Shown: piece after piece, positions 22,225-30,797 of the stretch
Numbering within the stretch: position 1 is the first letter of the stretch
Layout of the letters: each line of letters opens with the position of its first letter
Assembly: GCA_016432325.1 (NCBI GenBank)
Contig: CP066684.1
Location: 128,001 to 192,000, forward strand
Direction: 5' to 3'
Length of the DNA: 64,000 bases
From: Candidatus Aenigmatarchaeota archaeon
GTDB lineage: Archaea > Aenigmatarchaeota > Aenigmatarchaeia > PWEA01 > JACQIF01
Position numbers and translations under genes: made by a program
The notes under the pieces: model-generated
The model's database searches: none
Told to the model about the DNA's origin: nothing
What the model saw: only the letters and a program-made list of their open reading frames with translations

Positions 22225-22263
22225 TGCCGGAAACTTGAAACCCGCGGTTTCATAGTTCGGGCA
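22225..22263. repeat. TGAAACC-CGC-GGTTTCA hairpin element in the uppS-RPA spacer
   Basis: Perfect 7-bp stem with a triloop at 22236-22252, extended by AACT/AGTT and TGCC/GGCA. Confidence 0.6.
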
Positions 22264-29022: not shown

Positions 29023-30408
29023 TCACACCTTCAGCCTTCTTTCCAGCGATTCAAGGTCGCGCATCAGGGACTCTTCCTCGCCCTTCTGCTTGGCCAGAAC
29101 GTCGGCGAGCTGCGCCTTTATGTCTTCCGTTGATTTGGCGAGCCTGTCGATTTCGTCTCTCTGATCCGTGACGGCAAGGCGCAGCGTTTCCGTCGTCGCC
29201 TTGGTTTCCGCAAGCTCGTTGGATATCTCGTCGAATATCTCCTGTTTAAGAATGTTGGCCGAATGGTCAAACATCTCGGCGAACCTGTTGGTGGCTTCGT
29301 TGAGCTTGTAGTCGAACTTGCCTTCGAGATTCTCTTCCACGGTTTCTATGCGCTTGACGCGGTCCTGCACGTCGATTATTACCGACAGCGCGCTTTCCCT
29401 GAGGCGTTCGGCCTCCTTCTTGAGTTCTGAGAGTACTCTCTTCTCGGAGCCGGCCAGCGCTTCCTTGGTCTCCTTCTCGGCGTCGGCGGCCTTCCGCTGC
29501 ATCTGGTTTATGGCAGAAGACGCCTGGTCTTCGGCGCGGCGCCGGACGGCGGCCATCTCGTTCTCCGTCGCGATCATCGCCTCGTCCGCCTTCTTGCGTG
29601 CGTCTTCGGCTACCTGCGCGAGCGAACTGCCGATGAACTGTCTTATCGCCCTCTCGGAGACGCGTTCGTCGACGGCAGTGACTTGGTTGGTGAGGGACTG
29701 CAGGAGATTCGCGAGGCGTTCGGCTTCCTCTGTGTGGAGCTTGAGGGTCTTTTGCATGAGCGCGAGCTCCTCCTTGCTGCTCGTTTGAGACAGCCTAGAC
29801 TGCAACTCTCCTAGCGCAGAATCCGTGTGGTTGAGCCTGGATGACAGCGTGGACTGCATCCGTTCCAGGTCTTCGGTCCTTGCCGCGGTGCGCGTCTTGG
29901 CTTCGAGCATCCTTATGGATTCGTGAACGGTTGCCTCGGTTGACGCGACGCGCGCGTCCAGCGCCTTCATGCGATCTGCGATAGAGGCGACATCTGCCAT
30001 CCTGTTTTCTAGCGCGCGCGTCTTGTCGTTGAGAGTCTGAATCTCCGACAGCCTGCCTTCCACGGAGCGGACGCGCTCGAGTAAGGGCGTCACGTCAGGA
30101 GGCTGTCGCGTCTCCAATGACCTGAACCTCGCGTCGGCGCCTGTCAGGGAACTCTGAAGGTTGGATTCCATTGATTGCACGCGTTCGTTGAGAGAAGAAA
30201 CGGATTCTAACGTTGATTTGATGTTTTCGGCTTCCTGGCGCGCCACTTCAAGCTGTCTGCGGATTTCGACCAACCCTTCGCTTTCGGAAGGTCTCGTCTG
30301 CTCTACTTCTCCTATCTTCTTTTCGAGCGCCGCGAGCCTCTCTGCCAGAGTCACCTGCAGTTCGGCCAGTTCGCCTATCTGATTGACCAATTCGTCTACT
30401 CCATCCAT
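29023..30408 (-). CDS. 461-aa coiled-coil protein
   Basis: Heptad-like L..R...LE pattern throughout; TGATG coupling to the upstream gene. Confidence 0.85.
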   Translation of the reverse strand: MDGVDELVNQIGELAELQVTLAERLAALEKKIGEVEQTRPSESEGLVEIRRQLEVARQEAENIKSTLESVSSLNERVQSMESNLQSSLTGADARFRSLETRQPPDVTPLLERVRSVEGRLSEIQTLNDKTRALENRMADVASIADRMKALDARVASTEATVHESIRMLEAKTRTAARTEDLERMQSTLSSRLNHTDSALGELQSRLSQTSSKEELALMQKTLKLHTEEAERLANLLQSLTNQVTAVDERVSERAIRQFIGSSLAQVAEDARKKADEAMIATENEMAAVRRRAEDQASSAINQMQRKAADAEKETKEALAGSEKRVLSELKKEAERLRESALSVIIDVQDRVKRIETVEENLEGKFDYKLNEATNRFAEMFDHSANILKQEIFDEISNELAETKATTETLRLAVTDQRDEIDRLAKSTEDIKAQLADVLAKQKGEEESLMRDLESLERRLKV

Positions 30409-30692
30409 CAGCGCTCACCGACGCTTTTTCTGAGAGCACGCAATATCTCTTCCTCGTCTCCGAGAACGCTCTCCACTATCTCGGATTTTATGCTGTCCGC
30501 CGACTTGAGCCTGCCTTCCATGCCGTCGATTCTGCTTTCAAGCATGCGCACCTTTCGCTTGAGCTCTTCCAGCATGGATGTGAGATACTCTACGTCTTTT
30601 GAAGGCGCGGCGTGCGCGCTTCCGAGTTCTTCCCTGACCTCTTTCAGGGACTCTTCCACGGCTTCACGCACGGCGTCTTTAAGGGTTCCCAT
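30408..30692 (-). CDS. 94-aa coiled-coil protein
   Basis: SD GGTGA before ATG 30692; coiled-coil core. Confidence 0.75.
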   Translation of the reverse strand: MGTLKDAVREAVEESLKEVREELGSAHAAPSKDVEYLTSMLEELKRKVRMLESRIDGMEGRLKSADSIKSEIVESVLGDEEEILRALRKSVGER

Positions 30693-30712
30693 GAACTTCA
30701 CCAATTTCCTCG

Positions 30713-30795
30713 TGGGATGTACGAGAACCACGTTCTCGACATGTCGAAATTCCACGGAATTTCGTACAACTTGAAATCGCATTTCATTGTTCCCA
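30713..30795. repeat. Multi-branched palindromic element
   Basis: TGGGA/TCCCA, TGTAC/GTACA, GAGAAC/GTTCTC, GACATGTC, GAAATTCC/GGAATTTC and TGAAAT/ATTTCA stems, most of them abutting. Confidence 0.8.
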
Positions 30796-30797
30796 TC

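Follow-up and report, generated by a model that had tools for sequence, protein, structure and literature searches.

A composite palindromic element, probably inserted DNA, between two coupled coiled-coil genes of an Aenigmatarchaeota genome

A palindromic element that separates two coiled-coil genes in the genome of a groundwater archaeon (Candidatus Aenigmatarchaeota; 875 kb, 90% complete) is probably a composite, non-coding insertion of DNA at the joint of two translationally coupled genes, and not an RNA junction that evolved in place. We analysed a window of 64,000 nucleotides (contig CP066684.1, hereafter C1, positions 128001-192000), to which all coordinates without a contig name refer. 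The element consists of two layers. In the outer layer, a 53-nt start cassette, a duplicated start is followed by a hairpin (H), the start in antisense, a portable ribosome-binding module and the real start, while the inner layer is a 51-nt twin hairpin with a REPIN-like layout, nested inside the antisense segment. Judged from the genome comparisons below, both layers are members of dispersed families that differ between sister species.

The operon joint and its counterpart in the sister genome

The open reading frame list indicates the minus strand as the coding strand at the element, in an operon that runs from an archaeosortase-like gene (31943-31365, with a Pfam match to Exosortase_EpsH) through a coiled-coil gene (31343-30798) to the element, followed by coiled-coil genes of 94, 461 and 749 aa. 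The coiled-coil gene directly upstream is a 181-aa open reading frame, possibly of 170 aa if read from ATG 31310, and it ends in ...EAKRIMGG-TAG with the stop at 30800-30798; the old Shine-Dalgarno sequence GGTGG (30806-30802) lies within its last codons. One nucleotide past this stop, the sequence and the empty-site alignment reveal a decoy start, ATGGGAAC (30789..30796), which duplicates the initial 8 nt of the downstream gene. It is separated by an AA dinucleotide from hairpin H (TGAAAT-GCG-ATTTCA, 30772..30786), the apical hairpin of the start cassette. The antisense start copy comes in two parts, AGT (30771-30769) and TCCCA (30713..30717), which together read AGTTCCCA, the reverse complement of TGGGAACT, and which are interrupted by the twin hairpin (30718..30768). 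The latter is laid out as TGTAC, hairpin A (30763-30746), the palindrome GACATGTC (30745-30738), hairpin B (30737-30723) and GTACA. Finally, the ribosome-binding module CGAGGAAATTGGTGAAGTTC (30693..30712), with its Shine-Dalgarno sequence GGTGA at 30702-30698, leads into the 94-aa coiled-coil gene (30408..30692), whose start at ATG 30692 (MGTLKDAVREAV...) was assigned by alignment with its orthologue.

The inverted repeats that an earlier note had described at 30713-30795 are indeed present, namely the TGGGA/TCCCA ends, the TGTAC/GTACA pair enclosing GAAATTCC-GT-GGAATTTC, the 8-nt palindrome and GAGAAC-GTG-GTTCTC, and hairpin H as the fourth hairpin. The element is also AT-richer than its neighbours, as had been noticed, having a GC content of 43%, whereas the flanking genes have 55-56% and the whole genome 56%. 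Inspection of the insert detected neither a TATA-like box nor a T-run, suggesting that it is likely co-transcribed with the operon.

We then compared the locus with Candidatus Aenigmatarchaeota MAG NC_groundwater_1118_Ag_S-0.1um_53_25, the only other genome of the genus (the sister genome below), which was also the only one of 40 relatives searched to encode an orthologue of the 94-aa protein; alignment of the 461-aa protein against JGI metagenome contigs found no relative. In the sister genome, the upstream gene ends in ...EAKRIMGGQ-TAG and the very next base begins ATG GGG ACA CTT (MGTLTD...), with no spacer, so that the junction reads ...AATAATGGGTGGCCAATAG|ATGGGGACACTT and all 104 nt are absent. 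Here, the corresponding stretch reads ...EAKRIMGG-TAG-g-ATGGGAAC, then 96 nt, and then ATGGGAAC-CCTT (MGTLKD...). This genome thus carries 104 extra nt, the gene's initial 8 nt are duplicated, and the decoy occupies the position of the real start in the sister genome; the empty allele would be expected to read TAG-G-ATGGGAACCCTT. Since the site is empty in the sister species, the inserted unit can be defined to the base, as a 53-nt cassette plus a 51-nt nested twin hairpin. The suggestion that the element might be an inserted palindromic element, to be sought by presence or absence in relatives, is supported by the empty joint in the same-genus genome and by the membership of both parts in dispersed families. 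A second empty site was found at the fibrillarin gene, where the twin hairpin in the 5' leader is missing from the sister genome. As the comparison comprises two genomes, an insertion in this genome and an exact deletion in the sister genome, bounded by the 8-nt repeats, would fit these sequences equally.

The same comparison bears on the start of the downstream gene. The 94-aa protein and its orthologue share 44% identity and align from residue 1, and the open frame of the sister genome spans only 96 aa, which places the true start at ATG 30692. As had been pointed out, a frame beginning at ATG 30782 is indeed open into the downstream gene, but by the orthologue alignment this ATG is not the start, and the resulting 124-aa reading is best taken as a false N-terminal extension through the insert. 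The insert thereby sets an annotation trap, yielding a spurious extension of 30 residues as well as a decoy start.

The start cassette and twin-hairpin families

All five parts of the start cassette were found at this locus, in the order of a ATGGGAAC copy, TGAAAT-GCG-ATTTCA, AGT|TCCCA, the GAAATTGGTGAAGTTC ribosome-binding module and the real start. Without its twin hairpin, the locus can be aligned collinearly to at least seven further cassettes of the genome, and at least eight other genes of this genome carry the same architecture. A scripted search for a start copy, a TGAAAY-n-RTTTCA hairpin, an antisense copy, a GGTGA module and a start returned 11 gene starts, while the sister genome yielded one cassette of the same plan (C63:4937). 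The spacing from the old to the new start is 53-56 nt in the cassettes, and the 104 nt at this locus correspond to 53 + 51. The TGAAAY-n-RTTTCA family comprises 35 sites in this genome, and the narrower form TGAAAC-n3-5-GTTTCA was counted 28 times here, twice in the sister genome and between 0 and 8 times in each of 20 further genomes of the order, whereas the reversed control pattern for hairpin H gave 0 sites. Furthermore, direct repeats of at least 8 nt flank 15 of the 35 H sites, compared with 9.7% of 2000 random sites. Taken at this locus alone, both the repeat of 8 nt and the antisense copy of 5+3 nt are short, and it is the family pattern that gives them weight.

The ribosome-binding module was also found to be characteristic of the cassettes. 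The genome contains the string GGTGAAGT-n(1-3)-ATG just 12 times, and most of these instances belong to hairpin cassettes. Of 1012 predicted genes, no more than 102 have GGTGA upstream at all, in diverse contexts, and the context GGTGAAGTnC-ATG is cassette-specific. This rarity, together with the location at cassettes, suggests that the module travels with the cassette. In addition, several host genes whose old start lacks a GGTG within the preceding 14 nt now possess one.

The window contains a second start cassette at 22236-22252 (C1:150236), between an uppS-like gene and an OB-fold gene, with the decoy ATGCCCGAACT, the hairpin TGAAACCGCGGGTTTCA and the real start TTGCCAGAACT 54 nt downstream.

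We next turn to the inner layer. At this locus, the twin hairpin reads as two inverted hairpin units, follows the plan TGTAC-hp-GACATGTC-hp-GTACA (in the family form, TGTAC-hairpin-GACATGYC-hairpin-GTRCA) and leaves all three sense frames open (51 nt, or 17 codons). A BLAST search with the element against its own genome, followed by a regular-expression scan, identified 10 copies in this genome. With the strict core pattern we counted 9 sites here, the tenth copy having a variant centre, and 1 in the sister genome, while the 199 other genomes of the class contained none. Its reversed form, used as a control, had no match here or in the sister genome and matched in only 1 of the 201 genomes. 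The pattern scan of metagenomes returned 120 loci, mostly chance matches, of which 7 had perfect hairpins in both gaps. These seven copies lie on contigs of 42-49% GC, one of which carries an archaeal SRP RNA.

Genes were called by codon usage. The genomic copies are all intergenic (10/10), and eight of the ten are found at a distance of 16-104 nt from a gene or tRNA start. The neighbours scanned are unrelated to each other, comprising a RibD_C reductase, a DUF975 membrane protein, a DUF7289 protein, fibrillarin and NAC, besides a tRNA gene and the coiled-coil gene described here. When the orientation of the copies to their host genes was read from the flanking genes, six were sense and two antisense, and the remaining two read as antisense inserts of tRNA genes. 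Searches with Rfam covariance models gave at best 14-15 bits at this locus, against thresholds of 39-57, and assigned no family to four other twin-hairpin copies or to the doublets of the seven metagenome loci.

Some copies stand in more elaborate surroundings. One twin hairpin (C1:607600-607790) has TATATAAA on both sides, so that a promoter box, not a gene start, is seemingly duplicated, and two further perfect hairpins lie just upstream of it. At four of the metagenome loci, of lower GC (L032, L116, L130 and L139), the twin hairpin sits in the middle of a stretch of about 190 nt with long terminal inverted repeats, such as GCAGCATC...GATGCTGC; these stretches, to which Rfam assigned no family, might represent an RNA gene or a composite element of larger size. 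Across the genome, perfect hairpins occur at 2.2 per kb compared with 1.3 per kb in shuffled sequence, and 42 clusters hold at least three perfect hairpins (stem of at least 6 bp) within 70 nt.

One copy (C1:851740) was located within a 138-nt insert in the T-loop of a tRNA gene (C1:851600-851860). With the insert removed, ARAGORN recognised a 7-bp acceptor stem, a D arm and a T arm, the anticodon arm still being interrupted. This insert holds the twin hairpin along with another hairpin, and the tRNA is recognisable only without it. Similar-looking flanks surround two other twin hairpins, the one at C1:515999 and the one in the sister genome. More generally, the tRNA genes of this genome seem heavily interrupted: ARAGORN found 3 with default settings and 12 when introns were allowed, and the Rfam tRNA model found 8, in this 875-kb, 90%-complete genome. 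Elsewhere (C1:782962-784530), a 396-aa tyrosine recombinase adjoins a tRNA gene, with a twin hairpin between the TATA box and the 5' end of the tRNA and a degenerate copy of the tRNA's first 17 nt upstream of the insert.

RNA folding, DNA-level constraint and rival explanations

The earlier note had interpreted the element as a nearly fully paired multi-way junction. In the minimum-energy fold of the sense strand, UGGGA/UCCCA encloses the fourth hairpin together with two adjacent extended hairpins that each contain a single bulged base, UGU-A-CG...CG-ACA and UGU-CG...CG-U-ACA. The outer closure together with the fourth hairpin thus stands, but the junction closed by TGTAC/GTACA is absent from this fold, and a GACA/TGTC stem has no loop and cannot fold alone. 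As for significance, the isolated 83-mer folds modestly better than shuffles (z = -3.9 on the plus strand; -26.6 kcal/mol and z = -2.4 on the sense strand), but a 161-nt context does no better than shuffled sequence (z = -0.2). The TCCCA can pair with either the decoy or the real start in alternative folds, and a fold of longer context places the start codon in a stem and the Shine-Dalgarno sequence in a loop. The accessibility of the Shine-Dalgarno sequence and the AUG computed from the partition function varies with the context chosen, and the folds near the start are thus not decisive.

To see at which level the hairpins are constrained, we analysed the stems of 18 twin hairpins by script, since MAFFT misregistered the second hairpin. 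Each of the 36 hairpins, 31 of them unique, has an uninterrupted Watson-Crick stem of 5-8 bp and a loop of 2-6 nt, with 204 Watson-Crick pairs in total and at most one G.T. The stem sequence varies between copies, always as an exact palindrome. The sole recurrent change outside the stems is itself paired: in 12 copies a central TGT->TGC accompanies ACA->GCA at the 3' end, whereas five copies have T/A at this pair and one is mismatched, indicating that Watson-Crick pairing is kept in the two-hairpin model. In foot and bulge, the second unit (TGY-CG..CG-T-RCA) is the inverted first unit (TGT-A-CG..CG-ACA), and their stems have different sequences, so that the doublet cannot be read as a single long hairpin. 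The perfect palindromes, the occurrence in both orientations and the low GC content argue for a constraint or a generating mechanism on DNA or on both strands, not on a strand-specific RNA. From these patterns, the constraint looks to act on DNA or both strands, with the RNA hairpins as by-products; alternatively, the high conservation of the core across GC backgrounds in the seven metagenome copies could reflect an RNA or protein-binding role.

We also searched for an enzyme that might mobilise the modules. The Y1/RAYT family (PF01797) gave no match in the 875-kb, 90%-complete genome, although control genomes matched, and the TnpB families likewise gave none. Two tyrosine recombinases were the only recombinase matches, the search covering Y1/RAYT, TnpB and tyrosine recombinases, and no transposase of the families searched was linked to the cassettes or the twin hairpins.

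Among the rival explanations, a dedicated cis-acting RNA deserves the most attention, though we regard it as unlikely. Here a processing site, a stabiliser or a translational attenuator would set the ratio of the coiled-coil proteins, by means of the hairpins or by alternating pairing of the antisense copy. The strong hairpins and the sense-strand fold energy, the ability of TCCCA to pair with either UGGGA copy, the start codon held in a stem in the longer-context fold and the probable co-transcription would all suit it. However, the sister operon lacks the element, identical modules precede unrelated genes in both orientations and occur in a tRNA insert, the stems are free of G.U pairs, and the fold of the 161-nt context is not significant. 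The processing or stoichiometry role that had been proposed for the element is for these reasons unsupported. An array of operator sites in double-stranded DNA, bound by a dimeric regulator through half-sites like TGTACG and CGACA, would account for the invariance of the core tetranucleotides GTAC and CATG and of the CG feet, as well as for the position of most copies near gene starts or promoters. Such an array is nonetheless improbable, since the stems differ among copies while their arms stay exactly complementary, which is unexpected of a protein site, the downstream genes have no common function, and copies also lie within a tRNA insert.

The relative of the module in a tRNA intervening sequence recalls archaeal bulge-helix-bulge introns; in such a case the splicing endonuclease would excise the insert from the mRNA and restore the ancestral stop/start overlap, a seamless join that the direct repeats would permit. 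A lenient scan, however, gave 2 matches per strand compared with 2.19 expected from shuffles, none of them bracketing the insert, and the helix between the start and its antisense copy has a 2x1 internal loop instead of staggered 3-nt bulges. As two 3-nt bulges 4 bp apart were absent from the insert boundaries in the scripted scan of both strands, we rejected this candidate and consider it very improbable. Chance palindromes or an assembly artefact can hardly be credited at all on the available sequences, because the core recurs 10 times in the genome and again in other assemblies, the reversed-pattern control gave none in either the genome or its sister, and the sense frames are intact. On these sequence grounds, it is the recurrence across the genome, and not the fold z-scores, that is the decisive evidence against chance. 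A composite DNA insertion thus remains our preferred reading of the element.

Translation across the insert and comparison with known systems

The decoy ATG opens a 32-codon frame, MGTMKCDF...PRGNW*, which crosses hairpin H, the twin hairpin and the antisense segment, and ends at TGA 30700-30698, a stop that forms part of the new GGTGA and precedes the real AUG by 5 nt. Elsewhere in the cassette family, the corresponding frame stops at -8 in five or six cases, as an ATGA overlap at +1 in two and at -10 in one, and comes to an early end in two. A stop that abuts a start is the usual arrangement of translational coupling. The old start would keep its place 1 nt past the upstream stop, behind the old GGTGG, and open a relay frame, through which ribosomes leaving the upstream gene could be passed on to the real start, melting the hairpins and the helix between the antisense copy and the start en route. 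The downstream gene would now be served by the GGTGA of the cassette. In this way, translational coupling may persist through the relay frame, although the frame is fixed by the shared length of the cassettes, so that its recurrence is not independent evidence of selection. If the frame is kept for the relay and the insert brings its own ribosome-binding site, the locus would show how a very small, gene-dense genome tolerates such elements. As to the antisense copy, it might speculatively have arisen by outward growth of the palindrome through template switching, after insertion with an 8-nt target duplication.

More broadly, the locus might be a clean and dated example of a previously undescribed class of archaeal mobile mini-elements, a tentative view that we hold with somewhat more doubt than belief. 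Such elements would be hairpin modules of 50 nt with gene and tRNA ends as their insertion sites. They would duplicate the target end in direct and inverted form, bring along a ribosome-binding site, nest in each other, build tRNA intervening sequences and be moved by an enzyme other than RAYT. The presence of the twin hairpin in 5' leaders and in at least one tRNA insert makes it a candidate source of the heavily interrupted tRNA genes of DPANN archaea. Literature searches for the concept and for the motif strings turned up no account of such an element; the MITE-like sRNA element of Pyrobaculum (PMC6009581) was considered and is a different thing. The cassette and the twin hairpin nevertheless share features with several known systems. 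To our knowledge, no element carries an antisense copy of its own target plus a ribosome-binding site, and we know of no parent insertion sequence.

The closest resemblance of the twin hairpin is to the bacterial REP doublets (REPINs/BIMEs), reportedly described by Bertels and Rainey in 2011 and said to be mobilised by RAYT Y1 transposases. Both are short extragenic hairpins with a conserved foot, which in the twin hairpin seem to be paired in inverted orientation as in the REP doublets, and both are restricted to a lineage, non-coding and constrained as DNA palindromes. In numbers, REPINs have tens of copies, and the twin hairpin has 10 intergenic copies here, 1 in the sister genome and 0 in the 199 other genomes of the class. 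The twin hairpin differs in that its two hairpins are not complementary to each other, that copies also occur in tRNA intervening sequences and nested in cassettes, that the host is an archaeon, and that no RAYT/Y1 gene was found in this genome.

Bacterial MITEs that alter the expression of their neighbours, such as the Correia elements of Neisseria and BOX/RUP of pneumococci, are likewise small, modular, palindromic inserts near gene starts that are co-transcribed, can provide expression signals and vary in presence among close relatives. In contrast to their fixed-length target-site duplication, the flanking repeat here is variable (8-18 nt) and copies the gene's own start, and the insert holds an antisense start copy and a ribosome-binding site instead of a promoter; the twin hairpin for its part shows no target-site duplication at this locus. 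Termination-reinitiation coupling by way of a short upstream open reading frame, a general mechanism of prokaryotes in which a stop lies in or next to the ribosome-binding site or the start of the next cistron, is matched by the UGA 5 nt before the AUG here and by the ATGA overlaps in other cassettes, but the relay frame, whose function is putative, is made by the inserted element and a decoy start.

Finally, the integrative elements of archaeal tRNA-targeting integrases (Sugahara et al. 2012, PMC3293823) regenerate the end of their target gene. The likeness lies in the working copy supplied beside the insert and in the partial duplicate of the gene end that insertion leaves behind. Those elements span kilobases, with an integrase and a fixed attachment site, whereas the modules reported here measure 50-100 nt and duplicate a sequence that differs from site to site.
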